64,000 nt of DNA, from assembly GCA_977017645.1 (NCBI GenBank), contig OZ360245.1, positions 23,684,001 to 23,748,000 of the forward strand, in the 5' to 3' direction. Source of the stretch: Torpedo marmorata (taxonomy: Eukaryota). Position numbers and translations under genes: made by a program. Below, in pieces: positions 3,101 to 58,345 of this stretch. Within the stretch, counting starts at the first letter, position 1; each line of letters starts with the position of its first letter. The notes beneath the pieces are model-generated. The model saw only the letters and a list, made by a program, of their open reading frames with translations. It had not been told where the DNA came from and did no database searches.

Positions 3101-3672
3101 TTGTTTGTAGTGTTACTATAGTGATTATGATGTAATATGTCGTAATATCCGCCCAGGCTAGGGGCTTGTTTTTTTATTCTACGAGATGTGAAGGTGCGTA
3201 AGCACGAGAAAACTTTCTTTGAATCAAAATATAGACGACACTTTCTTCTTCTGATCTCCTAATTTCAAAGTATCATCTTCCAATGCGTGAGCTACGATAT
3301 TCCAAATTATCTTCCCTTTAATCCAATAAATCAAGTTCTGTGGTATCTACTTTTGTAGTTTTAATTCGTTGATTAAGCGTATAAATATTTTACATAGTTT
3401 CACAATAAAACTTCCATATAGTTGAATAATAAAGCATTTACGGTATTTAAGAGATACAAAAACATTTAAAGAGATGCAAACACATTTAAATAAAATTTTC
3501 TCGTGCTTACGCATCTTCACATCTCGTAGAATGAAAAAACAAGCCCCTTGCCTGGGCGGATATTACGACATATTACATCATAATCACTGTAGTAACACTA
3601 CAAACAATAGTCTCTTAAAGACACAGGCATATAATTAACTAAGAGTCAAAACATAAGGTTTTAACCTTTACA
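107..3672 (-). mobile_element. BEL/Pao LTR retrotransposon, internally deleted and rearranged
   Basis: Direct repeats 107-552 and 3228-3672, both starting TGTAAAGG on the minus strand. A purine tract (ggggccagaa) abuts 552. Pao-type integrase remnants (LRVGGRL, PFTYVGVDYF, FWKRWIKEYL) at about 660-1974 and a gag-like ORF at 2083-2637; no RT between them. Confidence 0.85.
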
Positions 3673-5147: not shown

Positions 5148-5973
5148 TGCTGCCGGAGCCACTGTAATGGCAGCGCTGCCGCTGGTGCAGACTCACGGAG
5201 AGTGAGGAGCGAAGATACAGCGCTCCCACCCAGTCAACTGGCGTCAGCTCCGCACAGGCTTTGAACGGCCTGTTAAAGGAGCCGACGGTAGTTTTATTTA
5301 AAATCCTGTGACCGCGGGGTCTGCGCCCAAGATGGCAGCGCCTCTGATCGGCAGCAGCCACGAGGGGTTGCAGACTCCAGGGGAGTGGAGGACTGGCGCA
5401 GGGCACCAGAAAGCGGGGAGACCATCCCCCGTCTGAGAAGGAGAAGCAGAGGAGACGACCCACAGGACGGTGACCACAGCGGCAGACCAGTGAGGGGGCT
5501 CTGCGGCTGAAAGACCAATGCATGCGGCGGGCTGCTGGCGACTCGAGGCGAGGAACCCGCGGAGGCTGTGGGCTGCTGGTAACTGCTGTCGGGAGACTCA
5601 CGCCGGGCTGCGGACTGCTGGAGACTGGCTCGATCTGGCTGAAGGGGTACCAGGTATCGGAACCGGGATGCAAGGGAGTGCCGAAGGCGCTAAAAAGTTC
5701 CTGACCGTGTTGGAGGTTCGGATCTGGAGCTCGGGTTGCCAATGATTTGGACTGGACTCAGTGTGGCTGCGGAGGCTGCGGAAGCACTGGAGGCGAATCT
5801 ACGGACACTGGGTGACTCTGCGGGGACTCTCTTTTGCTTCTCTTTCTCTGACTGTAAGAGGCGCTTCAGGCAATTTCTGCCAATGGCGAATCTGTCTGCC
5901 TAACAGCAGGCAAAAGCAATTTCATGTAATATGACACTTTTTATTGCATGACAATAAATTGAATCTTGAATCT
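5148..5973 (+). mobile_element. ~830-bp GC-rich non-autonomous retroposon-like repeat, copy 1
   Basis: Homologous along its length to the inverted copy at 15712-16546. Ends catgacaataaattgaatcttgaatctt, an L2-like short tandem tail. Confidence 0.7.
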
Positions 5974-15711: not shown

Positions 15712-16546
15712 ATTTCAAAAGTTCAAAGGTTCCTTTTATTGTCATGTAATAATACATTAAAAATCTAATATACATGATATACTTTTGTCTGCCGTAAGGT
15801 AAACGAGTTGCCATGAGCATCGCCTGACGCTCCTAGCCATAGGAGAAAGAGAAGCAAACGAGAGTCCCTTCAGAGTATCCATGGATTCCTCTTCAGCACT
15901 CCCACAGCTTCTGCAGCCGCACGGACTCCAGTTCAAACCATCGACAACCTGAGCTCCAGATCCAAACCTCCGATACGATAAGGAAGCCTTTTGAAGCCCT
16001 TCTTGCCCTCAGCACCCTCAAGAATCCCAGTTCCAACACCTTGTTCCCATGAGCCAGTCTCCAGCAGACTGCAGTCTGTGTGGATCTTTTGACCACAAGT
16101 CGCCAGCATCCTGCAGCCTATGTGAGTCCGACCGCAAGTCGCCTGCAGCCTGTGTGGGTCCTTCAGCCGCTGAGATCCTCGCTGGTCAGCTGGCATGGTC
16201 CTGTAGGGTTGTCTCGTATGTTTCTCCTTCTCAAATGGGGGTGTTCTCCCTGTTTCTGATGCCTGTTTCCTGTGCCGGTCTGCTGCTCCCCCAGATTCTG
16301 AACCCCTTATGGTACGCTGCCCAGCATAGGTGCTGCCATCTTGGGCTCAGACCCCATGGTCACAGGATTTAAAAATAAATACTGTTGGGTCCTTTACAGG
16401 CTGCTTAAAGCTGGTACGGATCTGTTCGCATGAGGACCGGGCAGTAGGACCCTGTGGAGCAGCGCTGCGTTTCTGCTCACCCGCTCTCCCTGGTCCGCAC
16501 CAGCGATAGCGCCACCATTACAGCAGCTCCGGCAGCGGATGCCATC
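15712..16546 (-). mobile_element. ~830-bp GC-rich repeat, copy 2
   Basis: Reverse-complement homolog of 5148-5973; the spurious ORFs share CHLG.RP.GHRI. Confidence 0.7.
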
Positions 16547-19540: not shown

Positions 19541-19599
19541 ATAGCACCTTTCCTTGTAGTTGAAGGAAATATACCAGTTTTCCATTTACTTCTTCCTTT

Positions 19600-20407
19600 T
19601 GTTACAAACTCAAACCAGCAACGACAGAAGACACAATGAAAAAGGGGTAAAATTGAAATTTATATTTATTAAAGACAATTAAACATATAATTTCTTACCA
19701 ATTAACCCCACTATAAACACTATTCTTATCTATAAAGAGTGTGTGTAAAGCCCAGACCATTACAGTCTGTGCCCAACCCTCATGTAAAAATGGAAAACCT
19801 TTCCAAAAACCCCCAGGTCAGTCATAAAAATAAGTCAGTCCCAAAATTATGTTCAGGGGGTCCAAATTCAGCTCTGTGTGCTGGCACGAAGGACTTCTTA
19901 ATGAACGTTGGAGAGAGAGACAATGACTGTTTAAGCTTACGAATGCTTGGCCTGCTTTTCTTCTCTGATGACTTTCCCTTTTGGTAGATACACGAGGATT
20001 GCGATTCCAAATCAGTTTTGGATTGAGGCGTATACTTGGATCTCACAGCCGGTCTCGCTGATCTCACGCCTGTTCTCCACAAAAGTTGATTTAAATCAGG
20101 ATTTTGCTGATACAGGAGGCCATGTGCTATTCTCCCAGCCTTTTCCCCTGGGAAGCACAAGCCTGGATTTTGCTGTGTTCTCCAGCCTTTGCAACTCCAA
20201 ACTGAAATGCTTTTTGCAGAGGTTTGCACCTGCTTTTGCAAAAATGCAACAAAGTATCTTTCCACAGCCTGTCTCTCTCTCTCTCTCTCTCTGGGCCGTC
20301 ATGGGAAAGTTAACTCTTTTAGTACCAGGTCCCAGTGTGGACTCCAAAACACTTCATCCTTCCTGCTGACCGTCCACAGTCCAAATGGTCAGTCATGGTC
20401 CTTAACA
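19600..20407 (-). mobile_element. Solo LTR related to the Gypsy element at 42525-49350
   Basis: TGTTACA...TTAACA termini; long stretches shared with both LTRs; imperfect 4-bp flank duplication (cttt/cctt). Confidence 0.9.
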
Positions 20408-20800
20408 CCTTCCATTATACAGGAACTCAAACACACCTTCTGGGTGAAGCACTTGTATTCCTTTCTATTCAGTGTACTACTGTAACCTTAATTCAGTGTG
20501 TAGGAATTTCTCTTTTATTGTAGTTAGCTGTCATTTAAATTCTCACCCATACTTCCACTCTAACCTCTCAGCCTTTTGAACTCACAGTAGCAACTAAGCC
20601 AATTTTAAGATCAAAGAATAATATCTTCTCCAAAGTAGAAGCTTGTTGACCTGAAGTGTTACCATTTATGCTACCTCATCTAATGGTTATTTTCAGAATT
20701 CTCTTCTGTTGTTAATATCTTGGCATTTAAAATATCTATACCAATGGTGAAAGAGTTGAAATTTTAGTCAGAATTATGCTATTTCCTCTGTCCCATACAG

Positions 20801-26029: not shown

Positions 26030-26058
26030 CCCCCCAACTCCAGAATCCAGTCATTCTT

Positions 26059-29038
26059 TTTTAAAAAAAATATTTTATTTAAAATTTTTAAATCACAAAA
26101 TAAATAAAATAAAATATACAGTTATGAAATTATTTGTGATACATTTTCACCCCCCTCCCTCCCCAACCCTCCCAATCCCACTAATCTAAAAAAATATATA
26201 AAATAAAAATAAAAAAAGAAGAAAGAGAAAAATAGAGTTAGGGGAATGCCAATCTATAAACTACTTCTATTATGGAGGTCAAGTATGCCAGTGGACCCAA
26301 TACCCAGAGATCCTCAAATTCTTAAGCCAACAGCTCTCATATATGGGCTCCAAATTTTTAAGAAAAAATGATATTTATTACGTAAATTATAAGTAATTTT
26401 TTCAAGTGGTATACATGAATGAAGTTCTGCATGCCATCTTTCTAATCCTAAATCTAAATCAGATTTCCAAGTAATAGCAATGCATTTCTTTGAAACAGCT
26501 AAAGCAATTCGCAAAAATTCTATTTGATACATATTCAATTTCATCTTAATACTAAATTTTTTAATATCTCCAAACAAAAATATCATAGGATCCATTGGAA
26601 ATGTAATTTTAAATACTTTATCTAAAAAACTTTTAACTTTCAACCAAAAATCATAAACTTTTGGACAAAACCATGTAGAATGTACAAAAGATCCTTCTTC
26701 TCTATTACATCTGAAACATAAACCTGATAGTGTCGGATTAAATTTCTTTAATTTTTTAGGTGTTAAATATAATTGATGAAAAAAATTGTATTGAACTAAT
26801 CTATATCTAACATTAATAATCTTCATCATACTTAATTTAGATAATTCTTTCCAATGATTTTCATCTATTCTTACATTCAAATCTACCGGTAATTCCCATT
26901 TTAATCTTGATTTATGCATTCCTACTTTAGGCATTTTCCTCTGAAACAATTTATACATTTGAGAAATAAATTTATTAACATCTCCTTTAGTAACTAATAA
27001 TTCTAATTCATTTTGTCTTGGCAAAATCAAAGCATAACCTAATTTCTCAATCAAAAAAGCTCTAATTTGATAATAAGCAAAAAGTGTATTATCTAATATA
27101 TTAAATTTATCTTTCATTCTTTGAAAGGTAATAAATTTTCCAGCTTCAAAACAATCATTAATCTTTTTAATTCCTTTTTGAAACCAAATTTTAAATAATT
27201 GATTATTAATAGTAAATGGAATAAGTCCATTTTGATATAAAGGCATCCTTGAAGAAATCAATCCTTTTGCTCCTATTTCCTTATCCGTCTTATTCCATAT
27301 TTCTAACAAATGTTTAAAAATAGGCAAATTTTTCTTTTTTGTTGATATTAATTTAGAATCCCATCTTCTTTGGAATCTTCTCCTATATTGTTTAATTCTA
27401 TTTTAATCCAAGCAGAAGATTTAGTTACCGGTAAATCAAAAAATTCATTAACAAATTTTAATTGAGCTGCTTTATAATAATTTTGGAAATTAGGAAGTTG
27501 TAAACCACCCATTTCATAATTCCAAGTTAATTTTTCCATACCTACTCTTGCTAACTTTCCTTTCCATAAAAATATTCTAATAATTAAATTTAAATCTTTA
27601 AAATTTTTTTGAGGAATTCCATAAGGAATTGCTTGAAAAAGATATTGAATTCTTGGAAAAACATTCATTTTAATACAGTTTACTCTTCCCATTAAAGTTA
27701 TAGGTAAATCTTTCCAATTTTCTAAATCTTTCTTTATTTTCACAAATAATGGTAAATAATTTAATTTATATAAATTAGTCAATTCTGTATCGACCTTTAT
27801 TCCCAAATATTTAATTCCTTCCTTAGCCCATTTAAATTGTGTAATTTCCTTACATCTACTATAATCCCCTTTTGATAATACCATAATTTCACTTTTATCA
27901 GAATTAATCTTATATCCAGATATTTCCCCATATTCTCTCAATAGCAGAGACAATTGTACTAAGGATGTAGTAGATTTCATCATATATATCAATACATCAT
28001 CTGCAAACAAGCTAACTTTATGTTCTTCCATTCCAACCTTAATACCAACTATTTTAGGATCTTTTCTAACTAATTCTGCCAAGGGTTCTATCGCCAAAAT
28101 AAATAATGCTGGTGACAAAGGACATCCTTGTCTAGTAGATCGAGTCAAAGGAAATTTTGAAGAAGTTTGTCCATTTGTGACTACTTTAGCTGATGGTTCT
28201 TTATATATAGTTTTAATCCAATTAATAAATGTATTTCCAAAACGAAATTTCTCCAATACCTTAAATAAAAAATTCCACTCTAATCTATCAAAAGCCTTTT
28301 CAGCATCTAAAGTTAAAACTAATGGTAAGTCTTCCTTCTTTTTATGTAAATTAATTAAACTAATCAATCTGGCTATATTATCTTTTGAATATCTATTTTT
28401 AATAAAACTAGCTTGATCTACATGAATTAAGTCTGGTAAATAATTAGCCATTCTATTTGCTAAAATCTTTGCCATTATCTTATAATCTACATTTAATAAT
28501 GAAATAGGTCTGTAAGATTCAGTTTTCAATACATCTCTATCTTTCTTTGGTATAACTGTAATTATTGCATTTTAAAAAGTATCTGGTAAAGAATGAGTTT
28601 CCGTAATTTGATTCAATACATCCATATATGGAGGTATTAACAAGTCTTTAAATTCTTTATAAAATTCTGATGGAAATCCATCATCACCTGGAGATTTACC
28701 ACTTTTAAGCGAAGTAAGAACTTCATTAACTTCCCTCATTGAAAAAGGTAAATCTAAAGATTCTCTACTTTGAGTATTCAATTTAGGTAGTGTAATTTTA
28801 GATAAGAATGTAGTAATTTTAGAATCATCTTGATCAAACTGAGATTTATATAGATTCAAATAATAATCTTTAAAAGAATCATTTATATCTCGAGGTTTAT
28901 AGGTTATTTCTCTAGAATTCTTTTTCCTTATAGCATTTATAGTTCTAGAAGTTTGTTCTTTTTTTAATTGCCATGCCAAAACTTTGAGCTCTTTCCCCTA
29001 ATTCATAATATCTTTGTTTAGTTCTTTCAATTAGTTTT
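26059..29038 (-). mobile_element. L1/Tx1-type LINE, 5'-truncated, RT plus C-terminal CCHC region, 16-bp TSD
   Basis: YRPISLLN, LDAEKAFD, RQGCPLSP, LFADD, CFRC...H...C; GAATCCAGTCATTCTT at 26043-26058 and 29039-29054. Confidence 0.95.
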
Positions 29039-30735: not shown

Positions 30736-30976
30736 GATGCTCTTATTGATACAGTGAAAAAGTCCAGAATTCATTTTATCCACTGTTTGTTGCCAAAATC
30801 TAATGCGCTTACTGAAAGAAAAGTGTCTCCAACTCCTTCTATGAAGTCTGGAATCATAGAAACTGATGTCCAGGCAGAAAATTTTGAAGCAGGTCTGATG
30901 CAGCTGGACGTACCACTTCTTCGAGCCCAGATTAGGGGCTGCAAACTTCTTGATGCCCTGAGAATATATAGACAAG
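30736..30976 (+). CDS. MYO18A: MYO18A exon: DALIDTVKKSRIHFIHCLLP...LDVPLLRAQIRGCKLLDALRIYRQG
   Basis: cag|GATGCT...CAAG|gtcggt, 241 nt, phase 0-1. Confidence 0.95.
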
Positions 30977-32722: not shown

Positions 32723-33519
32723 GTTATGTGGCACTGCACTAAATGGGATAGACTTAGAACAGATCTTACTATTCAAAATTGGGCATCCATGAGGTACTGT
32801 GGACCACAAGCAAGAGCAGGAATGTACTCTATCACAATCTATAATCTCCTGTCCTGCGGATCCCTCAGTCTACCATTGCCATAAAGGGGTTCATCCCTTG
32901 TTCAATTTAGTGACCCATTAACATAGGACCACATATATACTGGAAAAGGTAAGTGATTTCACAACTAATGGATTGATTGGAAGCTCTGTAGTCCTATTGA
33001 ATTTTGTCATGGCTGGTCATGGACAATTAAACAGGAAAGAGTTGGAGACTCCAAAAACATCCACATCTTCAATAGTGGCAGGGCCCAATATGTGAGGGCT
33101 CCAGACAAAATAAAAGTATTTGCAGCAGTGTTCAGCTAGATGTCTTCAAAAGATGATCCAAACCTATTTCCTCGGGACTATATCAGGAAATAGCTGAGAA
33201 CAACGGATACTGCAAAGGATTTAGGACCACATAATATCGCAGTTGTACTGAAGACTTGTCCTGCAGAACTAGCTGCACCGATGTTAATGCTGTTCCATTA
33301 TTATATACTGGCATCATGTGGATAATGTGGAAAATTGCCAAGCTGCATCCTATTCACAAATTCTAAGTAACTGCTTGCTGCACACTCAATCTGCTCTCGG
33401 TCATCAGTAAATTGATGGAAGCCGTCATGAGATGAGGTTAGGGACTGCTTTTTAATCAAGGTTGAATTTGACTGAATTTAGCAAAATTGGTCAATAGATA
33501 TCAAGGAGAAATCAGTCTA

Positions 33520-35612
33520 TTTGTATTGGCAATAGAACCGTTGGCGGAAATGATCAGGAAAGATATGAATATAAAAGGGATAAAAGTAGGTGCAGAAGAG
33601 CATAAAATTAGTTTGTTTGCAGATGATGTATTAATATATATGACAAAGTCTATTGAATCACTTCAACAATTAGATAAAATATTGAGGGATTATGGTGAAA
33701 TATCTGGATATAAAATAAATTCGGATAAAAGTGAGATAATGGCTTTATCTCAAGGAGATTATACTAAATGTAAAGAAGTTACAAAATTTAAATGGGCTAA
33801 AGAAGCTATTAAATATTTAGGAGTTAAAGTGGATACAAAGTTAGAAAATTTATATAAATTAAATTACATACCTTTATTTCAGAAAATAAAGAAGGATTTG
33901 GATAATTGGAAAGATTTACCTATAACTTTAATAGGAAGAGTGAATTGTATTAAAATGAATATTTTTCCAAGAGTTCAATATCTTTTTCAATCTATACCTT
34001 TTGGTATTCCCCAAAAATTTTTTAAAGATTTAAAAAGTATTATTAGAAAGTTTTTATGGAAAGGAAAACTGGCAAGAGTAAGTATGGATAAATTAACTTG
34101 GGAATATGAAATGGGTGGATTACAACTTCCTAATTTTCAATATTATTATAAGGCAGCACAATTAAAATTTATAAATGAATTATTTGATTTAACTAAAAAT
34201 ACGGCATGGATTAATATAGAATTAAGTAATATAGGAGAAAGAAATAAGGAAGATATTATTTATAAATGGAATTCTAAATTATTATTGATTAAAAAGAAAA
34301 AGTCACCGATTATTAGACACTTATTAGAGATTTGGAATCAATTAGATAATGAAATAGGGCGAAAAGGATCAATTTCTTTAAATATGCCATTATATCAGAA
34401 TTTATTATTACCATTTTCTATGGATAATCAATTTTTAAAATTATGGTATCAAAAAGGAATTAAGAAGATTAAAGATTGTTTTGAGGCAGGAAGATTTGTA
34501 ACTTTTTCCAGATTGAAAGAAAAATTTGGAATAATGGATAATACAATTTTGGCTTATTATCAAGTTAAAGGATTTTTAGTTGAGAAATTAGGGAATCAAT
34601 TAATATCTCCTAGACAGGATGGGTTAGAGTTACTAATTACTAATGGAAATGTTAATAAATTTATATCGCAAATGTATAAATTATTTCAGAAAAAGATACC
34701 TAAAGTAGGATTGCATAAATCTAGATTAAATTGGGAATCAGATCTAAATACTAATATAGATGAACAACACTGGAAAGAATTGTGTAAATTGAGTATGACT
34801 AAGATTATTAATGTTAGATATAGATTAGTACAGTATAATTTTTTTCATCAATTATATATAACACCCAAAAAATTAAAGAAATTCAATCCGGCATTGTCAG
34901 ATATGTGTTTTAGATGTAAAGATGAAATAGGTTCCTTTGTACATTGTACATGGTCATGTTCGAAAATTAAAAATTTTTGGTCTAAAGTCAAAGATTTTTT
35001 AGATAGAATTTTTAATATTATGATTCCAATGGATCCTATGATATTTTTATTTGGAGATATAAAAAAAATGAGTATTAGAAATAGATTAAATATGTACCAA
35101 ATAGAATTTTTACGAATCGTATTAGCTATTTCAAAAAAATGTATTGCTATTACTTGGAAATCAGATTTAGATTTGAATTTAGATAGATTACATGCAGAGT
35201 TACGTTCTTGTATACCACTGGAAAAAATTACGTATAATTTGCGAGACAAATATCATTTCTTTTTGAAAATTTGGAGCCCATATATGAGAATTATGGGTAT
35301 GAATTAATTCTCTAAAAGTTAGTACCGCTGACAAAAGTATCCTCCATATATAAATAGAGTTAGTCTGAAATAGTTTTCTCCTCATTCTAACTCTCTTAAT
35401 TTTATTTCTCATTCTATTTCTTTCCTTTTAACTAACATTTCTATATATTCTTTTTTTTTTCTCTTTATTAGAATAGTGTGGGAGGGCTAGGGAGGGGAGG
35501 GAGGGAAGGGGGGTTGGTAAAAATATCACATGTATTTTGATAATATATTATTTTGAATATGTATTTTGTGATTTTAAAAATTAAATAAAAATTTTTAAAA
35601 AAAAAAAAAAAA
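33520..35612 (+). mobile_element. Young L1/Tx1-type LINE, 5'-truncated, uninterrupted ORF2 C-terminal part, poly(A), 17-bp TSD
   Basis: ORF open from the junction to 35307 (LFADD, CFRC...H...C); AAGGAGAAATCAGTCTA at 33503-33519 and 35613-35629. Confidence 0.95.
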
Positions 35613-35820: not shown

Positions 35821-38800
35821 TAGGGTTACCAGATTTGCCAAATAGAAATACAGGACACCCTGTTCAAATTTAAATTCAAATGATTTCTAATTTGCATATA
35901 CATACGTACATTGAGATAAAATAATATTACTACATGGGAACACTTATATACTAAAAAATATTGGTAACACGGTCATCTGGATTAAATTAAAAATTTAATC
36001 AGGTTAACTTTACGCAGGCGAGACCCTGTTACCAAAATATTCATTTCTTATCCAATTAAAATGTAAGTATTTAAATTACATACCATTAATTATATTTCAC
36101 TGATGACTTGGCTCTCCTTAACAGGTCCTTGTTTTGCAGAACTTGCTTATAAAATTCCTTGCACTGACAGTCTATGTTCCATTTACATTGTAACATAGCT
36201 TCTGCTGTGGTCACATCCAATTTATTTCGTTCTTTTGTCCATTGAACATTCATTAACGAGAAAACACGCTCAACATTAGCATTATGAGCCGGTATGCTGA
36301 ACATGTACTGGCATAAAATTAACAACTCGGAGAATTGCTCTTCAAATTTAATTTGTTCAAGCACAGAATACCATCATTCATGGCATAACTTGCTTTTCAA
36401 TTCTTCGGGATTGCATCTCTTGATCAATGAGTTTTTTAAATGTTGTCCACTGACAAAAAATAACATTGTCGTCAATTTTTATTCCCTTCTTTTTTAACAC
36501 TACACATGATGATTCCACTTGTTCCCATGCTGGAAGAGTATTTAGTAACATCCATGTAAGTGTATCGAATTCTTCAAGAGATGAAATCCATTTCACAAGA
36601 TAGTCATGGCAAGTGCCGTAATAATTATCCACTTCAAGTTGGAATTTCTTTTTCTGTTCAAAAGTAGTGTTGTCACTTTTAAGGCAAGCCTTGACACTTT
36701 TTTTTTATATTTTATTTAAATTTTTAATCACAAAATACATAAGATAAAATATAAAATTATCAAAATACATGTGATACATTTTCACCCTCCCTCCTCCCTC
36801 CCCTCCCCAACCCCCCCCAACCCCACTAATCTAATAAAAATATTTTTTAAAAAAAGGTAAAAATAGAAAAAAAAAAGAAAGAAAGTAAGGGGAATGCCAT
36901 CTATAAACTAATTCTATTGTGGAGGTTAAGCATGCCAGTAGATCCGATATCCAGAGATCATCAAATCCTTAACCCACAGCTCTCATATGGGCTCCAAATT
37001 TTTAAGAAAAAATGATATTTATTACGTAAATTATAGGTAATTTTTTCAAGTGGTATACACGAACGAAGTTCTGCATGCCATCTTTCTAATCCCAAATCTA
37101 AATCAGATTTCCAAGTAATAGCAATACATTTTTTTGAAACAGCTAAAACAATTCGTAAAAATTCTACTTGATACATATTTAATTTCTTCTTAATGCTGAA
37201 CTTTCTAATATCTCCAAACAAAAATATCATAGGATCCATTGGAAATGTAATCTTAAATACTTTATCTAAAAATTTTTAAACTTTCAACCAAAAATCATAA
37301 ACTTTTGGACAAAGCCATGTAGAATGTACAAAAGAACCTTCTTCTTTATTACATCTAAAACATAATCCTGATAATGCCGGATTAAATTTCTTTAATTTTT
37401 TAGGTGTTAAATATAATTGATGAAAAAAATTATATTGTACTAATCTATATCTAACATTAATAATCTTCGTCATACTTAATTTACATAATTCTTTCCAATG
37501 ATTTTCATCTATTCTTACATTCAAATCTAATTCCCATTTTAATCTTGATTTATGTAAACCTACTTTAGGCATTTTCCTCTGAAACAATTTATACATTTGA
37601 GAAATAAATTTATTAACATCTCCATTAGTAACTAATAATTCTAATTCATTTTGTCTTGGTAAAATCAAAGCATGGCCTTGACACTTAAAGAGATAAACTT
37701 TTCATCAATTCTTTCTTTTACGCAGTCAATGAATTCCTTTAAGCAATGAAGTACTTCAATAACGTTGTTTGCTCGTTTTAAAATTTGCATAATCCTATTG
37801 CTAAAGAGATATTGAAAACTGTGAACAAGAAATAATTAGGCTTCGCTCAATGGATTATTGAAAAAGTCAACAAGAATTTTCAGGACCTTTTCTTCGGAAT
37901 TAAAGTATGATTTCAGTGCTTCAAATAAACTGAGGATTCTCTCAACTGCATTTATTAAAGAGACCCAACAGGTTTTAGAATGTGAGAGAACTGAAGAATA
38001 CTGAATGCCAACAAAATCACAAAAATCCTTTAATCGCTCAGTTCGAACAGTATAAATGCTGAAGTAAGAAAACAATTTCATGACAATTACCGTACTTCAA
38101 TGTCAATAGAAAGGATATCAGATGCGGTTTGAGCAGCATTATGCAGAATATGAGCAGGACAGCTAACACCTTCCATAGAATCATTCATGCTTTGCTTCAA
38201 CTTTGAATAGACATTGTTCACACCTTTACACAAACGTCCACCAAAATTAGTATTTGTATTATCTCCACCAAAAGCTGTACAATTTTTCTCATTAACTCCT
38301 AATTCAATAAGAGTTTCTCTGCAAAAGCTTGCTATAGTTTCTGAGGTCTCATCTGGAAGGGATTTTACTCGCAACAGCTTTATCAGCAAGGCTTTTTCTC
38401 GGGAAAAAAATTGCACAATTAAAGGGGAAAACATTTCTGCGTTGTGATTACTTGCATCCATGTTGTCCACCGTAAAAAGACGAGGCATTTATATCTTTGA
38501 CAATCTCTGCAATGGTATATGGAGCTATTACATTTTTTACTATTGCAGTAGATTTCGTCCTGGCCTTTGAAAATTTGGATGCAATTTTGGAATCAGAAAA
38601 TACTTCCGGTAGAAGTATGTTCATACAGTCATTTGAGCTGAATGACTGATGATGTTGAACAGTGTCGAAGGCCATTACAACCTCTGCAGCTATTATTTTA
38701 TCTTCTTCTGTATTTCTCTTAATCAAGAAATTTGTTATTTTATCAGTTTCTTTTGTAGTCGAGGAAAACATACATCTCTTGTGCTTCGTTATTTGTATAT

Positions 38801-39451
38801 GCTGCTTTATATCCGACTTCCCGCCATTTTCGATATTGAATGAACAATTGCATACTCCACAAAGAGCTTCAAAACAACTTTTCCCTTGTTTAATAAATGT
38901 CCATTCTTAAGAGAATTTATCACGAAATTTACACTTTTGTTTTGGCATGTTGGGGTTAAATTACAAAACACAAATGAAAAATATTTTGCTAGCTTACCAA
39001 CGCAAGAATTGAAAAAAATCAAGCCTGGTAATTTCACTGATCAGTCACCAACAGCTGCAAACGCATAACTAACGGGCTGGCTGGCAGCGGCCAGTGGCTG
39101 CAGCCAACGAATGACACGTTTCAATGAAACGTCACGTGTGCATTCGTTGGCTGCGGTTTCAAACAAGTTCATTACTTGTCGCAAATACTTGCTGTCTTCG
39201 GGTGACTTCCTTCAACGTAATAGTGGAGTTATTTAATGTTTTAGTTTTAATGAAGTAAAATTCAAGTAGTACAAACAAAATTATTGAAAATTCCAAATCG
39301 TACAGCTCTAAACTGCTGAATTTTGCAATTTATTTAAAAAAAATCTTAATACAAGACATTTAAGGCATCCTGATAAAGTCAATACAGGACACAGGACAAA
39401 ACCATTAAATACAGGACATGTCCTTTATATATGGGACGCCTGGCGACCCTA
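35821..39451 (-). mobile_element. hAT DNA transposon (Blackjack-like) with decayed transposase
   Basis: Terminal inverted repeats (TIRs) TAGGGTTACCAG / TAGGGTCGCCAG; degenerate 8-bp TSD tccacagc/accatagc; transposase remnants GDNTNTNFG, CPAHILHN, SIPAHNANVERVFSLMN. Confidence 0.9.
36700..37674 (-). mobile_element. L1/Tx1-type 3' fragment inserted in the hAT transposase, 12-bp TSD
   Basis: Very similar to 26059-27030; GCCTTGACACTT at 36688-36699 and 37675-37686. Confidence 0.93.
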
Positions 39452-41704: not shown

Positions 41705-43466
41705 GAAAAACGGGTGAGTTAGCTGTGGCCATGATTTGTTATCAACTAATCTGGCACTCAAACTTTCAAATTTGTAAATCTAATAACCTTAAGAAAATCT
41801 GGGGACATTTGCAGTAGGTGAACAAGAAGATCAGGAATGGTTTTATTGAAAGGCAGTACAGACATGCAGGGATGAATGGGAAGTGTATGTATTTCTTTTA
41901 CATAATCTAGGGAGGAAAACATGCAATGTTAGAATTGTAGTTATGTGCATTAATAACATTAAATTACTGTAAGTAAAAAGATTTCTGTTGAAATCTTTTG
42001 TTTTTGTTCTGTATTCAACTGTAGGACTAGGTATCAAGGTGGGTGACCAACATTCAGGGTATAGCACTGAAGCAGATAAGTAGGACTAAGCAAGCAGCCT
42101 CTTGGAGAGAGCAGATGGTGAATAACCAGTATGTGGAGAGTGGTGTAAAGGCAGGAGGATCCAGAGTGCAAGGAGAGATGAGAGCAAAAGTGTTGTAATG
42201 GATAGGAAAGGGTCAGAGGACTGCAGGCATGTGGGATGAGTTCAGATGGGCATATTGGTGGGCATGGATGAGTTGAGCCAAAGGGCTTGTTTCTATACTA
42301 TGTAGCTCAATGTCCGTGAATACCTATGGGTTAAGGGAGAGGGAGCTGAGAAGGAGGGAGATTGAGAGAGGTAGCTGGAGGATAGAAGAGAAATATGAAC
42401 ACTGATGGAGGATGTGATCAGGGTGGGGCATGAATCTGTTTGCATGTGTGTCTGGGATCAGAGTATGTGTTACTGCTCAGTCAACACAGCAGAGTTTGGT
42501 TTTCAGTTAACTTAAACTTCCTTGTGTTACAAATTCCAAACCAGCAATGACAGAAGACGCAATGCAAAAGGGGTAAAATTGAAATTTATATTTATTAAAG
42601 ACAATTAAACATATAATTTCACAACTATTAACCCCACTATAAACGTCTATAAACACTATTCTTATCTAAAAGGTGTGTGTGTGTGTGTGTGTAAAGCCCA
42701 GACCATTACAGTCTGTGCCCAACCCTTATGTAAAAATGTAAAAACCTTCCCCAAAAACCCCAGGTCAGTCATAAAAACAAGTCAGTCCCAAAAATACAAT
42801 CCACAAAAATTCACTCTCTATGCTCAGGGTCCAAATTCAGCTCTGTGTGCTGGCACGAAGGACTTCTTAATGAACGTTGGAGAGAGAGACAATGACTGTT
42901 TATGCTTACGAATGCTTGGCGTGCTTTTCTTCTCTGATGACTTTCCCTTCTGGTGTTTTCACAAGGATTGTGAATCCAGATCCGTTTTGGATTGAGGCGT
43001 GTACTTGGATCTCACAGCCTGTTCTTCACAAAAGCTGCTCTCAACTCAGGATTTTGCCGAATCACCAAGGCTTTGTTTTTGGTCCCAACCTTTTCCTCTG
43101 GGATGCACAAGCCTGGATTTTTGTGATTCAGAAGGCTCTGTGTTCTTCTCCCAACCTTTTCTCTGGGATGCACAAGCCTGGATCCTGCTGAGTTCTCCCG
43201 CCTTTGCAACTCCAAAACTGCCACTGATTCAATTTTCCACGACTGAACTTTTAGGCCTTCCTGCAGAGGTCTTCACCTTTTTCAAAAGTCCAACAACCAG
43301 GTATCTCTTTTCACAGTTTGTCTCCCCCTGGTGTCTCTCTCTGGTAAGTACAAGAGGTCCTGGGCAAGTTAACTCTTTCAGTACCAGGTCCCAGTGTGTA
43401 CTCCAAAAGACTTCATCCTTCCTGCTGACCGTCCGCAGTCCAAATGGTCAGTCATGGTCCATAACA

Positions 43467-43478
43467 CCTCCCACCCAC
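43467..43478 (-). promoter_or_regulatory. Polypurine tract of the Gypsy element
   Basis: Minus-strand gtgggtgggagg directly precedes the 3' LTR TG. Confidence 0.75.
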
Positions 43479-46400
43479 AAAGAAAATTTTGGTCTGCAAG
43501 AACAAAATTTTGGAAATTGAGGTGTTACAATATAAACAAAACCCACAATGTTCATCCACAAATACAAAATATGAACTATTTTCATTTATAAAGTTTAGCA
43601 TCTAGAAAGACAATCAGCAATTACATTATCTTTCCCTTTTATATGTGTTATTACCAAATCATATTCTTGCAAAATTAGACTCCAATTCAACAACCGTCGA
43701 TTCTTATTTTTCATTTTACAAAGAAAAACCAATGGATTATGGTCAGTATACACTATGAGTGGTTTTTGAGCTGTACAGATATAAACATCAAAGTGTTGTA
43801 GAGCCAACACAAGAGCCAACAACTCTTTTTCTATTGTTGAATAATTCCTTTGATGATCATTGAACTTCTTCGAGAAGTAGGATACCGGATGGTCAATGTC
43901 CTCTTCGTTCTTCTTCTGTAACAGCACCATGCCCACAGCTTCATCGCTGGCATTCGCGGCTAAAGAAAACGGCTGTTCTAAATTAGGTGACTTAAGCACA
44001 GGTTGGTGGCATAACATGGCTTTCAATTTGACAAATGCTTCCTGACAACCTGTCGACCATACAAATTTTCTCTCTTTCTAAGCAAATTTGTGAGGGAGCG
44101 CAAGATCAGCAAAATTTTTACAGAACTTGCGGTAGTAGCCAATCATTCCCAGGAACCTCCTCAGAGTTTTCTTACCAGTTGGAACAGGGAACTCGGAAAT
44201 AGTCACAACCTTTACCTCTACTGGCGCCAACTGCCCCTGTCCTACAACATAACCCAGATAAATAACAGTAGCATGTCCAAACTCACTTTTACAATCACGT
44301 TCGAACAATTGTTTTATCTCAAAGACATGCTCTTCCCAGGTCTCACTACTTACAATTAAATCATCAATGTAAGCACCTGTGCTTTTTCAACCCTTGAATT
44401 ACTGAATTAATCATTCTCTGAAATGTTCCTAGAGCATTCTTCATACCAAAAGGCATAACATTATACTCATACAGCCCAAAAGGTGTTACGAATGCAGAAA
44501 TCTCCCCAGCCCTTTTTGTCAAAGGAACACACCAGTACCCTTTCAATAAGTCAATTTTTGTAAGAAATTTGGCCTTCCCCACCTTATCTATACAATTGTC
44601 TATTCTAGGAGTAGGATAAGCATCTGTCTTTGTTACAGCATTTACTTTCCTATAATCAGTGCAAAACCTAACCGTTCCATCAGGCTTAGGCACTAAAACA
44701 CAAGGGGAACTCCAATTGGAAGTAGACTTGCGAATGATATTGTTCTTTACCATGTAGCCAATTTCCTGATCTACCAGTTTGCACTTTTCCGCATTGATTC
44801 GATAGGGATGCTGCTTTATCGGTCTTGCATCTCCTCTATCCACATCATGATAAGCGATGGAAATTTTCTGAGGCACATCGGGAAATAAATTTATAAATTT
44901 TAAAAATAACTGACTCATCTCTTCCTTTTCTGAAGTTTTCAGATGAGCCAACTTTGTCTCCAGATTGGGCAAAATCATGGAATTTTCTAACCTCGGGCTT
45001 ATCAATTTCTGTGTCCCATGACCCTCTCTGAAACTGGTTTTATCTGTCTCCTCTTTACCCTGATCAATAACCAGCACCTCTGGTAAATGTTCAGTCTCTT
45101 TGTGCGGCACCTGTTCAAAATATGGATTAATCATATTCACATGACAGACCTGTGTGTCTCGTCTGCGATTAGGTGTTTCTATGACATAGGTGACATCATT
45201 AATTTTTGACTTAACTCTATAGGGTCCTGAAAATCTAGCCCTAAGATGATTTGAATGGATGGGAAACAGAACTAATACGTTCTCACCAGGTTTAAAAGTT
45301 CTCATCTTAGCCTTTCGATCATACCAATCCTTCATTCTCTGTTGAGTGGCCTTTAAATTCCCCTTTGCCATATCACAAGCCCTATGCAACCGATCCTTAA
45401 ATTTTGAAACATAATCTAACAGATTTAAATGCACATCACTATTAATCCACTGTTCTTTTAATAATCTTAAAGGACCTCTCACCTCATGTCCGAAAACTAA
45501 CTCGAATGGACTAAAACCAAGTGATTCTTGGATAGACTCCCTCGCTGCAAATAATAACAAATGAACCCCCTCATCCCAATCCTTTTCCTTCTCACAACAA
45601 TAGGTTCTAAACATGTTTTTCAAAGTCGAATGTAACCTCTCCAAGGCCCTTGACTTTCTGGATGGTACGCAGAGGATACAATCTGTTTAACTCCCAGTCC
45701 ATCAACCACTTGTTGGAAAACTCCTGACATGAAATTACTCCCCTGATCTGATTGAATTTCCCTTGGCAAACCTACCAAGGTGAAAAACTTTACAATTGTC
45801 TTTGCTTTAATGTTTCTCAGAGGAATGGCCTCTGGAAATCTGGTTGCGGCACACATAATTAATAACAAATACTCATTCCCCGCTTTGGTTTTGGGCAATG
45901 GGCCAACACAGTCCACAATCACTCTCGAGAAAGGCTCACTGAAAGCAGGGATAGGTTGCAAGGGTGCCACCGGAGGACCCTGATTAGGTTTACCCACCAC
46001 CTGACAAGTGTGACAGGCCCGGCAAAAGCTTACAACCTCCCTTCTCAAACTGGGCCAATAAAATTGTTTCATTATCTTCCTTATAGTTTTCTTCACCCCA
46101 AGGTGACCAACTAAGGGTGTGCTATGAGCCAAAGTTATTATTGCATCCCTATATACTTTAGGGATCACAACCTGCTGCACTACTGCCCATTCTTCATTGG
46201 CAGGAACATCACATGGTCTCCACTTTCTCATCAACACCCCATCTTTTTCATAATAACCCACTGGCACCTTTTTAATCTCCTCTTCAGAGAGAACCTTATC
46301 CCTCACCTCAGCAAGATCAGGATCGTCCTTTTGCCTTGCTATTAGCTCCTGTCGGGATAGTGACAAATCTGTGCCTTTAGGTGTCTTATCAGTGGATGGG

Positions 46401-48322
46401 TGTAACACAGGAGATTGCTCAACCTTTTCCAGGTGTTCTTGATTATCACTGACTTTTTCTTTCACCAATTTATTTTCCACTGCCTTCTCTACAGTGACAT
46501 TTTTCTTAGACATGGCCCTGGTTATGGCACATGCCGGATAAATATCAGAGTCTTTCTCTGACTTATCAATGACTGGCTTAGTGGTCATTCGCATTGCAGG
46601 AACTACTGTACCCTCGGCCAAGTCATTGCCTAGCAACAGTGAGACTCCTTCTACTGGCAACTCTGATCTCACTCCTATTATAACAGGTCCTTCCACCAAG
46701 GCTGAGTCCAACACTATTTTGTGCAAAGGAATGGACTCAACATCACCCCCAATTCATTTAATTAAATTCATGTCACCGGTGTCAGTAGCTTCACAAAATT
46801 CCAAAACACTATCTAACACAAGTGACTGAGCAGCTCCAGTATCTCGCAAGATTTTCACTGGAACTTGTTTTGATCCTGCCTTAACTGAAACAAAACCATC
46901 AGTTACAAAAGGTTTAAATACATCCCTAACTTTGTCAGTAAATTTATCTCCTTCCTGGGTGTTATGCCTCTTCTCACTCTGAATACAAGCATTAGGTGTT
47001 GCATCCTTTTCTCTCTTTTTCAACACTGGACAGCTTGCTAGCATATGACCAGCCTTCTTACAGTAGTCGCCAATGGGACCTGAAGGGTTTTCCCTTTTCC
47101 ACTTTCCTTCATCCCTTTCCTTAACACCACTTCCAAATTTACTTTCCACTTGCTTGGGATTATCCACATTGACCTTTTGGAAAATTCTGCCAGACGTCCA
47201 CTTAGGCTTGTGGGTTAAAGCATATTCATCTGCTAACTTAGCTGAATTTTGCCAAGTTTTCACCTCCTTTTCATCTAAGTATGCCTTGATATCCTCAGGA
47301 ACACACCTTTTTATCTCCTCGATTATTATCAATTCTCTCAATTGAATGTAATCATTGTTTACCGCCTTATATGTGCACCACCGGTCAAAACACACAACCT
47401 TTTCATAGGCAAACTCTGTGTAAGATTGGGTTGCTGATCTTTTTAAATTTCTAAACTTCTGTCTATAAGCCTCTGGAACTAACTCATAAGCCTGGAGTAT
47501 AGCCTTTTTCACCATTTCATAATCAGCACTTGCTCCGTGGTAAGAGTAGAATAAGGTTGCTGAGCTTTTCCTTTTATTACACTTTGTAACATAAGAGACC
47601 ATTGGTCTTGTGGCCATTTTAATTTCACAGTCACCTTCTTAAAATGCTGGAAGTACTTATCTATTTCTGCCTCCTCAAATGGAGGAACCAACCTAACTTC
47701 TCTACTAGCCAAAAACCCCTCAACAGGATGACGAATTTGATCTTTGTGCTCTTCTTGTCTCCTCTCATTTTCCAACCTCATCTTTTCCAGCTCATATATC
47801 CTATTTTTCTCCTCGTTCTCTAAGTCTAATCTCTTTTGTTCCAATTCCGTGTCTTATTTTCTTTTGTTCCAATTCCCTGTCTAATTTCTTTTGTTCCCTG
47901 GCTACCTCCAAGTCTAATCTCTTTTGTTCCAATTCCGTGTCTATTTTCTTTTGTTCCAATTCCAATTTCTTTAGTTCCAACTGTATGTTTTCAGAAGGTT
48001 TACCCTTGGGAAACTGCTCTAACACGCTCTCCTCAAATTTTTTTTCTTTTATATAGTATTTGACAATTTTTCTCCCAATCTCTGCCTTTTTCATTGATGG
48101 TTTTACTGAAGCAATGCCCAACTCTGTTACTCTAGCCACTAACTGTTCCTTTTTCGCCTTTTTTAAAGTGTCAGGATCAGGTGATTCCAAAAAATTTTCT
48201 ACATCCATTGTTGCTTGTTTTTTTTTTTGTTACACACATACTAACTTTTAATTAGCTTTACAAAAGGAATGTCTTAAACCAGACTGGGATTCCTTCAATT
48301 ACCAAGATGGATTTTGATTCAA

Positions 48323-48341
48323 ATCCAAGGACGAGCCCCCA
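48323..48341 (-). promoter_or_regulatory. Primer-binding site, tRNA-Pro type
   Basis: The minus strand reads TGGGGGCTCGTCCTTGGAT just inside the 5' LTR; canonical PBS-Pro is TGGGGGCTCGTCCGGGAT. Confidence 0.85.
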
Positions 48342-50586
48342 ATTTTGTTACAAATTCCAAACCAGCAACGACAGAAGACGCAATGCAAAAGGGGTAAAAT
48401 TGAAATTTATATTTATTAAAGACAATTAAACACATAATTTCACAACAATTAACCCCTCTTTAAACGTCTATAAACACTATTCTTATCTAAAAGGTGTGTG
48501 TGTGTGTGTGTGTGTGTAAAGCCCAGACCATTACAGTCTGTGCCAAACCCTCATGTAAAAATGTAAAAACCTTCCCCAAGAACCCCAGGTCAGTCATAAA
48601 AACAAGTCAGTCCCAAAAATACAGTCCACAAAAATTCACTCTCTATGTTCAGGGTCCAAATTCAGCTCTGTGTGCTGGCACGAAGGACTTCTTAATGAAC
48701 GTTGGAGAGAGAGACAATGACTGTTTAGGCTTACGAATGCTTGGCTTGCTTTTCTTCTCTGATGACTTTCCCTTCTGGTGTTTTCACAAGGATTGCGAAT
48801 CCAGATCCGTTTTGGATTGAGGCGTGTACTTGGATCTCACAGCCTGTTCTTCACAAAAGCTGCTCTCAACTCAGGATTTTGCCGAATCACCAAGGCTTTG
48901 TTTTTGGTCCCAACCTTTTCCTCTGGGATGCACAAGCCTGGATTTTTGTGATTCAGAAGGCTCTGTGTTCTTCTCCCAACCTTTACTCTGGGATGCACAA
49001 GCCTGGATTTTTGTGATTCAGAAGGCTCTGTGTTCTTCTCCCAACCTTTACTCTGGGATGCACAAGCCTGGATCCTGCTGAGTTCTCCCGCCTTTGCAAC
49101 TCCAAAACTGCTACTGATTTAATTTTCCACGACTGAACTTTTAGGCCTTCCTGCAGAGGTCTTCACCTCCTTTTTCAAAAGTCCAACAACCAAGTATCTT
49201 TTCACAGTTTGTCTCCCCCTGGTGTCTCTCTCTGGTAAGTACAAGAAGTCCTGGGCAAGTTAACTTTTTCAGTACCAGGTCCCAGTGTGTGCTCCAAAAG
49301 ACTTCCTGCTGACCGTCTGCAGTCCAAATGGTCAGTCATGGTCCATAACACTTGTCATTAGACCATAAACTTGTTATGTAAGACAACGTGGTAGAGAGGT
49401 GTAACGCCCAACCCACATTTAAAAAATTCTCACATGACCATCTTTCATGCCTCAGAACTGTAGCAGAAGCAAGTCATTTTTGATCATGAGGGACAACTTA
49501 AAAAATGTATAAAAGCATCTACAGAATTCAATTAACTGGACTAAATGGCAGATTTTTTTTAGTGAACTCCATGACAAATAATATAATGATGTTTAACATT
49601 ATCATCTTGCCAATAATTTAAAAAAGGTGTTTTGAACAGAATTGTTGGAACAAATAAGTAGAGGACTGGTGGAGTTCAACCAACATGTGGTAGGCTATGT
49701 ATTGACATTCAACAATGCCAATTCATGTGGTGCATGTTTATTGATATTCAAACAATAGGAGGAGGTTGTTTTGAACCAGTAAGCAAATAATCGTCATGAA
49801 AATTAATACACCAAAGGTATGGCCAATGTAAGTCAGTACGCCACGTTGTAAATTGATCACTGTGGCAACTAAATAACACAGAAGTGTAACATTGTAAACC
49901 AAACACTAACAACATATTGGTAAATTTAAATATTGTGTGCAGAAGCTTCATGTATTCACGTTTAATTTAAATTATTATACGTCTTTTAACATGGAGGCAT
50001 TAAAGATGTAAGCATGTTTAGCTGTTTATATTACCTTTAGTGAAATACAAGATTGTTCATGAGCTATTTAAAGTGATTATTTAGTATTGCTTTCATCATT
50101 CTTAATAAATACAATACTAATGTATTGCAGTTGTGTTTTGCACCTGTTCTGCAGATGGAAATCTGAAATAATTAAGCATAGTTGTAATTTTTATATTGTA
50201 TTAGAGTAATCATTGAGTATTATAAATTGCCTCAATTTTTAAACTCGTAAATTGCTATTAATTCATTGACCTGAAAATATCTTTTAGAATCCAACTGCTG
50301 TCACCACGTTAGTTTGGTGTCAGATATTGTCAAAGAGGTGGAGGTGCAGGTGGCTCAGACCTGAATGTCATTTCATTTCTACGAACTCGAATTGTACTTC
50401 CTGGTACACTGTGCAGCCTCACCTCCAATGTTGCTGGTTGAAATCTTGTTTGTTCATTGGTTTCTCTCCAAAATAAAATTCTGACCTTGGAAAGTAATTT
50501 TTGAGAATGTATACAACATATCATGATGTAAAAGTTGGGAAATAATATTTATTTTCTCTAAGAGTTTCTTTTTTTTTTGCTTATAG

Positions 50587-51680: not shown

Positions 51681-52588
51681 ATTCCAGCATTTGAATTTAT
51701 TCCCACTGTGTTGCAAATTGCTATGTAATGAATTAGCAATAAATTCAATATTTAAAAATTGGTAACACAACAGCCAATTCATTGAATTTAATTGTAATTA
51801 CACTGAATTTACGGTAGTTTTATTTTGTATCCAATAGATATTGAATTTGCTTCATTGTACAGTAAACCTTTGAACCCAGCGGTCTCATTAGATTTTAATG
51901 CAGTTCTGAATTACTGTCTTATTTTCGGATGAGTGGAATTACATAGAAGTGAAACCCTTTCAGTGTGATACAGTTGAGCTATTTAGCTCTTTGAAAAAAG
52001 ACAAAAACTGTTTAAGTGGCTTAAAGGTAACAAAATTAACATAAAATAATTAGGCTTGTAATGGAAACAGAAAGGCACAAACATTTTTGAGACACTGGAA
52101 TCTGGAGCAACATAAGAAGTGGCTGGAGGAACTCATTGGGTCAGGCAGCATCTTCCCATTTCAGAGAGAAATGGACAGTCGATATTACAGGTTGACTTTA
52201 GCTATTTTCTTCTATGCTCATGGTGGTGGTAACCAAAGCTAATTGGAGTTGGGTGCAAAAATGGCTTGGTGCCCTAATAGTAGTTATCTTGTGCAACAGA
52301 ATGCAAATCAAAAAACAATGAAAACTTGTATGAAGGGTACTACAATAGTCATAGACAGTTTTAATCATATAGTTTGGATAAATCAAATTTGCAAGGGTAG
52401 CTTTGAGGATGAGGGTGTATTTACGATTTTGTGGGGAGGGGGATTTTTCTTTTAGGCAATACTTTGAAGAACCAATCAGGGAGTAAGCTGTTTTAGACCC
52501 GGTATTATGGAATTAATGATCTCAATGTGAAGAATCCCCAAGGAAAGATCGATCATTGCATTGCAGAATTTTGAGTGTGAAATAATTA

Positions 52589-53426
52589 CAGTGCCCTCCA
52601 TAATGATTGGGACAAATACACTTTTTTCCTTTGTTTGCCCCTGTGTCCACATTTTTAAATTTGTAATCAAACTATTCACATGTAATTAAAGTACACATTA
52701 CAGATTATATTCAAGGTTATTTGTATACATTTTGGTTTTATCATGTAGAAATTACAGCACTTTTTATACATAGTGCCCTCATTTCAGGGCACCATAAAGT
52801 TTGGGACATTTGGCTTCAAGGTGTTTGTGAGTACTCAGGTATGTTTAATTGCTTCATTGGTGCAGGTATAAGAGAGCTAGGCTGTCATTAGCAATGGAGG
52901 TCTTCCTTGGAATACCAGTCCCTTTGCGATTACTGAGCTCACCAGTACGATCTTTCTTATTAATGATGTTCCAGACAGTTGATTTTGGTAATTCTAAGGT
53001 TTGGGCGATGTCTCGTACTGTTTTATTCTTGTTTTGCAGCCTCAAATTGGCTTTTTTGACTTTCATTGGCACAACTCTGGTCCTTGTGTTAAAAAATGGC
53101 AACTACAGACTCCAAAGGTGATCAAAAGCTTAGAAGCAAGCCTAGCTCTATTATACCTGCCCCAATGAAGCAATTAAACATACCTGAGTACTCACAAACA
53201 CCTGTGAAGCCAAATGTCCCAAACATTAAGGTGCCCTGAAATGGGGGAACAATGTATAAAAGGTGCTGTAATTTCTACATGGTCACACCATAATGTATAC
53301 AAATAACCTTGAATAAAATCTGGAATGTGCACTTCAATTACATGTGAATTTTTTTATTGCAAATTTAAAACACGGGGCAAATAAAGGAAAAAAGTGTCTT
53401 TGTCCCAAACATTATGGAGGCCACTG
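52589..53426 (-). mobile_element. Tc1-type IR/DR transposon, internal deletion derivative
   Basis: TA|CAGTG...CACTG|TA; ~290-bp TIRs with internal repeats (cataa.g.ttgggaca); N-terminal paired-like HTH remnant RDIAQTLELPKSTVWNII. Confidence 0.92.
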
Positions 53427-57155: not shown

Positions 57156-57870
57156 CTGTAAATGCCGGCGTATAGGATGACTCTGTATAGGACGACCCCA
57201 GATTTTCCAACTAAAATGTAGGTTTTGAGCTATATCATTTGTATAGGATGACCCCCCAAGTCTGGCACTTACCACTGACCAGTGGAGTAATGCTGTCACA
57301 ATATTTTAATACAACATTACCCTCTAAAGGTTTTAATTTTATTAGCATATTTTAAAATAAACCACCGTCGGCTCCTGTAACAGGCTGTTTAAAGCCTGTA
57401 CAGAGCCGACCGAGTTGGACTGGGCAGTTGGACTCCGCGGGGGAGCACTAAGACTTCATTGATAACTAACAGGACACACGTAGGTTTGCCCCGCCGAATG
57501 GGCAATGCCCCTCAATGCGCGCGCAGGGCTGACTTTAAATATGGTCCCATACAAAATCTTTGGAGTATTTTCACCTCTTCTGCAAAATGACATCGGAGTA
57601 AATTGTAAGCTTCCTTTCTTTTCGCTATCGCCATTTGTGTGGAGATGAGCCGGGTTGTCAGCACGAGGAAGGTGGTAGAATGCGCTTAGGGCCTTACCGG
57701 GACACTTGCGTCGGAGCCGGCAGGATGGGGATAGGATATGGAGGGGGAGGGGGAAGATGGCAGTGGTGTTGAGACTTCGCGGTCAAGGTTCAGATTTTAG
57801 ACCCGGTGTATAAGATTTTGAGGCGACATTTTTAAGTTTCGAGGATCGTCCCATACGCCGTCATATATGG
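57156..57870. mobile_element. Tc1/mariner (pogo/Tigger-like) MITE
   Basis: TA flanks; imperfect TIRs ctgtaaatgccggcgtataggat / ccatatatgacggcgtatgggac; subterminal gtataggaYgac repeats. Confidence 0.75.
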
Positions 57871-58345
57871 TATATATTACTGTACACATGACACAAATGA
57901 AAAAATAATGCACAAGGACAACAGTAGCTAAGTAAAAGCAATGAGATCATGCTCCAGGCCTCATCTGATCTGTGTCCATTTCCCATCTACTGACTTCATC
58001 TCTTCAGCTGTGAAACCGAACTGTATGGACTTGCAGCTGGTGAATTAGAATTAATACCTTTTCAAAAGTTCAGTTAAGATAATTGATGTACATTTCCACA
58101 TATTTAAAACTTTTTACGTAATTTGTTGGCTTCCATTGACTACTTCCATTCCTCACTCATGTTACATTGCAGATCCAAAACTCTTCAAGTTCAGTGAAGA
58201 ATTTTGAAGTTTTTTTTCATGTTTAATGCATTCACTTTTGCATTCACAATTGAATGTAGCATTAGGCTGTACTGAAGGGCTTTCAAAAGTGCAGGCACTC
58301 ATTCCCCTACAAGTGCCCCCCCCCCCAGTAACTTACTGCCATGGT

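Follow-up and report, generated by a model that had tools for sequence, protein, structure and literature searches.

Two identical 6-bp insertions, lying 542 bp apart in a single dead L1 copy, are very probably excision footprints of a cut-and-paste transposon of the pogo superfamily, of the Passer type and with 5'-CCGTA ends. The initial annotation of this DNA had read them as traces of a TA-targeting element with CC...GG ends, and that reading was strengthened by a third footprint, by a Passer-like MITE and by the enrichment of the motif, TACCGGTA, in Passer elements.

Identical insertions in one L1 copy

The insertions and the three L1 copies against which they are read lie in the 64-kb stretch of DNA analyzed here (the window), as follows.

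26059..29038, minus strand: L1 copy A, dead and 5'-truncated: ORF2 from the RT to the C-terminus, and the 3' UTR; bears footprints 1 and 2
33520..35612, plus strand: L1 copy B, 77% to A; insertion-free reference at both sites
36700..37674, minus strand: L1 copy C, inside a hAT-like element; 90% to A; empty TA at site 1
26884..26891, unstranded: probable footprint 1, TA-CCGG-TA, a 6-bp insertion adding Pro-Val to the conserved W-E-x-D-L motif of L1 ORF2
27426..27433, unstranded: probable footprint 2, TA-CCGG-TA, a 6-bp insertion adding Pro-Val to a length-variable loop of L1 ORF2

We take these copies to be L1 from the label in the initial annotation and from their ORF2 motifs. Copy A has a reverse transcriptase domain (RVT_1, E=1.6e-41), a weak zf-RVT match and a T/A-rich tail, and it combines the RT domain, C-terminal Cys-rich region, A-rich tail and variable-length target-site duplication (TSD) of the L1 clade. 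All three TSDs are perfect: 16 bp for copy A (at 26043 and 29039), 17 bp for copy B (33503 and 35613) and 12 bp for copy C (36688 and 37675). Copy A is dead: a deletion of 13 bp near 27367 shifts its frame, and there is a stop at 28572-28574. Copy B is a very young insertion of a second L1 subfamily; together with its perfect TSD it retains 610 stop-free codons (33475-35307). When the L1 subfamily of the host itself was sought among proteins, one search gave 7 matches at ≤52% and another gave 5 at ≤57%, with nothing closer; nothing close appeared among the best 150 of 19,812 protein representatives, and an exact look-up of 10 ORF versions of the L1 in protein collections found 0 of 10.

At both sites in copy A, TA is duplicated on the two sides of the added bases, and a homolog with a single, empty TA exists. 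At site 1, copy A has 6 bp more than copy C, which has a single TA and flanks that are 100% identical over 15 bp on each side, and 6 bp more than copy B, which has TG there. At site 2, the 6 extra bp are seen against the single TA of copy B only, because copy C is truncated before that site. The three-copy alignment of ORF2, which contains three indels in total (the two inserts and the 13-bp deletion in A), thus bore out the earlier description of single-TA sister copies, C at site 1 and B at site 2. Translation confirmed the in-frame Pro-Val at both sites, the minus strand reading Leu-Pro-Val (KWELPVDLN and FDLPVTK); because copy A is dead, the in-frame insertions have no effect there.

The two occurrences of TACCGGTA that had been reported, at 26884-26891 and 27426-27433, are present and are the only ones in the 64 kb. 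Shuffled versions of the window contained a mean of 0.17, with 2 of 100 reaching two, and an order-3 Markov model gave an expectation of 0.2. When copy A alone was simulated 20,000 times, one TACCGGTA arose in 0.3% of the simulations and two arose in none. Across the 15,650 repeat-covered bases there were 71 indels of 2 to 10 bp, five of them with TA-duplication geometry: sites 1 and 2, a TA/TATA slip (counted in two copies) and a 10-bp tandem duplication. Only sites 1 and 2 among the 71 have TA duplicated around foreign bases.

Chance, in the form of two unrelated slippage or filler insertions, is an extremely improbable source of this pattern. Choosing among many windows inflates coincidences, but the AT-rich flanks do not template CCGG, and among 71 indels chance would have to supply the same GC-rich insert twice, each time with TA duplicated, and a third, compatible insert besides. 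A technical artefact is very unlikely, whether from faulty assembly or polishing or from the ligation of an ACCGGT hexamer (AgeI site). Each insert can be written T-ACCGGT-A, and the two lie within 542 bp and so inside one read; however, the flanks of both are clean, the 5-bp scar at 38088 described below is no hexamer, and natural Passer elements from many species show an enrichment of TACCGGTA. We know of no library protocol that leaves such a T-ACCGGT-A junction, which also counts against an artefact.

The window is repeat-rich animal DNA (GC 26-46%, CpG observed/expected 0.39) and contains one or more exons of a myosin gene, putatively MYO18; the exon and repeat sequences suggest a cartilaginous fish, probably a ray. 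Myosin_head was found at 14817, with matches to myosin chains in PDB, and the myosin exon at 30736-30975 had 0 matches in PDB and 0 in Pfam. The scars sit in dead repeats within an intron of this gene and are without function at the locus, those in copy A because that copy is dead. Other repeats in the window include a Tc1-type MITE at 52587-53428 (TA-CAGTG ends, inverted repeats of ~298 bp at 89%), a palindromic element at 3062-3645 (arms of ~163 bp) with a partial second copy at 107-552, and fragments with an integrase zinc-finger at 1432-2661, presumably BEL/Pao-like. An LTR retrotransposon at ~42500-49360 has integrase, RT and RNase H frames, a SCAN-like gag-region frame and terminal repeats that are 92-97% alike, with a related repeat at 19577-20414. 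A GC-rich repeat family has two copies, at 5149-5967 and 15726-16536 (69% to each other), and has a 77-bp segment (84%) in common with the interior of the Passer-like MITE (57349-57424).

A third insertion and the proposed joining of CCG ends

A further scar lies in the element that surrounds L1 copy C.

35821..39451, minus strand: full-length hAT-like DNA transposon with a decayed transposase gene; bears footprint 3; L1 copy C nested inside
38088..38094, unstranded: probable footprint 3 (new), TA-CCG-TA, a 5-bp insertion that frameshifts the hAT-like transposase gene (tblastn)

The hAT-like element has inverted ends at 35821 and 39451, with 8-bp flanks that agree at 6 of 8 positions. Its transposase has 53 homologs, up to 76% identical, and one of the four homologs scanned (P0175) has a Dimer_Tnp_hAT domain. 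A list of footprint-like motifs included TACCGTA at 38088, where the ORF ends. In tblastn alignments with the two closest homologs, a single valine of each (V293 in P0161, V284 in P0160) aligns to two places 5 nt apart, 38095-38093 and 38090-38088, so that the frameshift is a net 5-bp insertion, TA-CCG-TA. At the protein level, from the spacing of homolog residues, the 38088 scar is thus a 5-bp insertion with TA duplication. A CCG-ended element is expected to leave this three-base form, and the scar is independent of the two in L1. The other frameshift in the hAT gene, near 38460, had no footprint geometry by eye.

TACCGTA and TACGGTA occur 5 times in the window versus 1.5 expected. TACGGTA at 54962 proved to be ordinary CR1 coding sequence with normal coding spacing. 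TACGGTA at 318-324, 3439-3445 and 51810-51816 are candidate 5-bp footprints that have no empty homolog in the window. Neither CpG-decayed nor Tc1-type scars were in excess in the 64 kb, the decayed forms numbering 1 versus 1.95 expected for TACTGGTA, 11 versus 10.5 for TACTGTA and 5 versus 8.3 for TACCATA. With no further TACCGGTA and no excess of decayed forms, scars are therefore sparse in the window: three were verified over the 64 kb.

TA duplication and end-joining footprints are established for elements of this kind (PMC2874221, PMC4423477). In the mechanism that we propose, the element would insert at TA and duplicate it, as is established for the family and as the duplicated TA shows here, and staggered excision, most likely by 3 nt, would leave a 5'-TA-CCG-3' overhang on each flank. 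A 3-nt stagger is suggested by the 3-nt cag/ctg footprints of Sleeping Beauty and by the 5-bp scar. End joining would then pair the terminal self-complementary CG, and fill-in would give TA-CCGG-TA (+6 bp, 26884 and 27426); alternatively, the three bases would align over a C:C mismatch to give TA-CCG-TA or TA-CGG-TA (+5 bp, 38088).

When joints were enumerated for a 3-nt stagger ending in CCG-3', there were two well-paired alignments: a perfect 2-bp CG overlap, which yields TACCGGTA, and a 3-bp overlap with a central mismatch, which yields TACCGTA/TACGGTA. The 3-nt stagger with its two alignments would thus explain both scar sizes, and both are present in the window. CAG ends allowed only the 3-bp mismatched alignment, in line with the cag/ctg footprints of Sleeping Beauty (PMC5224488), and with a 2-nt stagger TACCGGTA was reached only with no paired base. 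By the genetic code, the +6 product keeps the frame in all three phases, adding Pro-Val, Tyr-Arg or Thr-Gly and no new stop; causing neither a frameshift nor a stop, it is therefore a potential source of two-residue protein insertions.

The Tc1 footprint TACATGTA arises from CAG ends with a 2-nt stagger. A similar cut, staggered by 2 nt as in Tc1/Tc3 and followed by fill-in of both CC overhangs, is an unlikely origin for the scars in the window. It would yield TACCGGTA directly, TACATGTA is a documented, rare footprint of Tc1 (PMC3520976, citing Eide and Anderson 1988), and Passer footprints reach 4 bp (PMC9976928). However, it would need joining with no paired base and would arrive at the 5-bp scar only via a mismatched single base, and its main expected products, TACCTA and TAGGTA, are not enriched in the part of the Passer supplement that was counted (21 and 14 matches versus 64 and 80 for composition controls), where TACCGGTA, an 8-mer with 26 matches, outnumbers both of these 6-mers. 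The initial annotation had explained the insertions by the retention of 2 nt of each end, which we consider less likely than a 3-nt stagger joined via CG microhomology.

Passer-like elements in the window and in other genomes

The window contains one element with ends that may derive from the kind that this mechanism calls for.

57156..57870, unstranded: Passer-like MITE, 715 bp, TA on both sides, ~26-bp terminal inverted repeats (TIRs), subterminal repeats, no long ORF

The MITE is flanked by TA at 57154-57155 and 57871-57872, as in the TA target-site duplication of Passer, and its ends are as the initial annotation gave them (TA-CTGTA...TATGG-TA). As CTGTA and CCATA, each is one CpG transition away from CCGTA. 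CpG decay and the TIR match suggest that both are decayed forms of CCGTA: the left end agrees at 17 of 19 positions with a 19-nt stretch of a PasserC TIR (PMC9976928 Table S1), a level reached in 0 of 100 shuffles. The longest stop-free stretch is 108 codons, short of the 400-500 aa of a DD35D Passer transposase, and we call the element a Passer-like MITE, not a member of Passer, because it has no DD35D transposase. On the right, 7 bp past the end of the MITE, TACTGTA at 57878-57884 may represent a footprint, either decayed or of Tc1 type.

From the MITE it follows that a family of this kind was at some time present in the genome. Its age is evident from its ends, which are mutated and differ from each other at 7 of 26 positions, and it looks older than copy A, which has a perfect TSD and at most ~1.7% post-insertion change. 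Because of this age, the MITE is more likely a relative of the scar maker than the culprit. The pogo-like MITE that the initial annotation named as compatible resembles Passer and has ends that may derive from CCGTA, but it is probably too old to have made the scars. No further copies of its TIR were found in the window at ≤8 mismatches in 26. The intact pogo/Tc2-like transposase with CCG TIRs for which the initial annotation had suggested a search is likewise absent from the 64 kb, as are an intact CCGTA-ended element, an autonomous element and any transposase for one.

Passer, a DD35D family within the pogo superfamily, duplicates TA and has TIRs of <30 bp; it occurs in rays and sharks (Leucoraja, Amblyraja and Chiloscyllium), and its footprints, of 0-4 bp, come from HeLa plasmid assays, with the sequences in Figure 4D (PMC9976928). 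Most of the rows viewed in Table S1 have CCGTA ends, the Amblyraja radiata Passer ends in CCGTA/CCGTA, and oomycete Passers with CCGTA ends are listed in the same table (PMC9976928). Counted over approximately the first 400 characters of each cell, with related elements included, Table S1 has 26 matches to TACCGGTA, versus 0-3 for 11 other palindromic 8-mers (0, 2, 2, 0 and 2; 3, 1, 0, 3 and 0; and 3). The 26 matches lie in 23 rows and, by eye, at ~17 distinct sites, ranging from coral to bat, with 7 rows from one fish family. Row 228, from Hippocampus, contains by eye an internally duplicated segment, one copy of which has TA where the second has TACCGGTA. TACGGTA has 50 matches in the supplement versus 2-12 for controls; 27 of the 50 were viewed, and 17 are plasmid or ORF text outside Table S1.

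The enrichment of TACCGGTA in Passer elements could instead reflect a functional cis-motif. For the Danio jaintianensis site, a guess at the empty-site sequence had 0 matches in the Passer supplement. TACCGGTA had 0 matches in the Tigger supplement (PMC9219625), a weak control in that the passages viewed were coding alignments. Neither TACCGGTA as a natural footprint nor CG microhomology appears in the open-licence full texts searched; Passer Figure 4D, closed papers and bioRxiv supplements may already show CCGG. The single TACCGGTA in PMC1978519 is a primer.

History of the scars and comparison with known systems

We lean modestly toward both L1 scars having arisen in copy A after its insertion, as opposed to the inheritance of at least one from the source L1. 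The history in which the scars were made in an active source L1 and passed on to copy A is the less probable one, and is a real rival because copy A belonged to an active lineage over most of its branch. Over 244 codons, with changes polarized by copies B and C, copy A has 12 synonymous and 10 nonsynonymous private substitutions (~134 S and ~598 N sites); pS of ~0.09 versus pN of ~0.017 therefore places most of the branch under purifying selection. Site 2 lies in a loop whose length differs among homologs, and copy C cannot date it. Moreover, a scar in an active ORF2 can persist only if it preserves the frame; this would account for the +6 length of both L1 scars, whereas the dead hAT gene has a scar of +5 that shifts the frame. 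Inheritance is opposed by site 1, which splits W-E-x-D-L at a point where 0 of 116 spanning homolog alignments have a 2-residue insertion, and by the Pro-Val motifs of sites 1 and 2, found in 0 of the 212 proteins compared. Copy C, at 90%, lacks the site 1 insert, and the CpGs of both inserts are intact, which also argues for an origin in copy A.

If the scars did arise in copy A, one element perhaps hopped 542 bp within it and left both. Local hopping had been suggested in the initial annotation and is plausible at this locus, being known for such elements at the 100-kb to megabase scale (PMC2874221), but the case from spacing is modest and inheritance competes with it. Copy A holds 7% of the TA sites in the window, and the probability that two random TA sites fall within 542 bp (P = 0.018) is weak after a genome-wide scan. 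Clustering of scars is needed under either history.

Footprints are a record of transposon visits that persists after the departure of the element. With a stereotyped TACCGGTA/TACCGTA/TACGGTA set, Passer-type activity could be tracked cheaply across a whole genome, and excision rates and local hopping could be measured directly in wild vertebrate germlines. Tentatively, CCG-ended transposons may have a built-in CG-microhomology route to a +6 scar, which would make TACCGGTA an unrecognized mutational signature across animal and oomycete genomes. If so, such scars would add dipeptides to proteins, including those of active L1 ORF2 lineages, would date past activity once the elements are gone and would explain some over-represented "promoter motifs." In Phytophthora infestans the over-represented motifs include M93, which is TACATGTA, and M94, which is TACCGGTA (PMC3597505); these have the same sequences as 6-bp footprints left by CAG- and CCG-ended elements, respectively. 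A footprint origin of TACATGTA is argued against in PMC3520976. Since there are oomycete Passers with CCGTA ends, M94 may have originated as a footprint, which would offer a non-regulatory alternative for a palindrome proposed as a transcription-factor site (PMC3597505).

The closest known system is Passer itself, with its CCGTA ends, to which those of the MITE in the window may trace back, its TA duplication, TIRs of <30 bp, footprints of 0-4 bp and occurrence in rays and sharks; the MITE also matches a PasserC TIR stretch (PMC9976928). The published footprints came from HeLa plasmids, whereas the scars described here are natural and genomic, and the window has no DD35D transposase. Sleeping Beauty and other Tc1-like elements leave TA-cag-TA and TA-ctg-TA (PMC5224488), that is, a TA duplication with three terminal bases; the scar at 38088 corresponds to these, with CCG as its three bases. 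Between CAG overhangs, however, there is no 2-base overlap that pairs, and therefore no 6-bp product is favored, whereas CCG overhangs pair via CG. The Caenorhabditis elegans Tc1 footprint TACATGTA resembles TACCGGTA in being a palindromic TA + 4 + TA that adds 6 bp and keeps the frame, but it is termed rare (PMC3520976) and does not come from CG microhomology. Natural excision footprints are already known, as are Passer footprints of up to 4 bp (PMC9976928): in grasses, past excisions of Stowaway/mariner elements were inferred, as here, from empty versus scarred homologous sites, with 1-4 bp of TIR remnant within the TA duplication (PMC1925063, PMC4423477). The plant scars are heterogeneous and often accompanied by deletions, whereas those in the window are stereotyped and clean.
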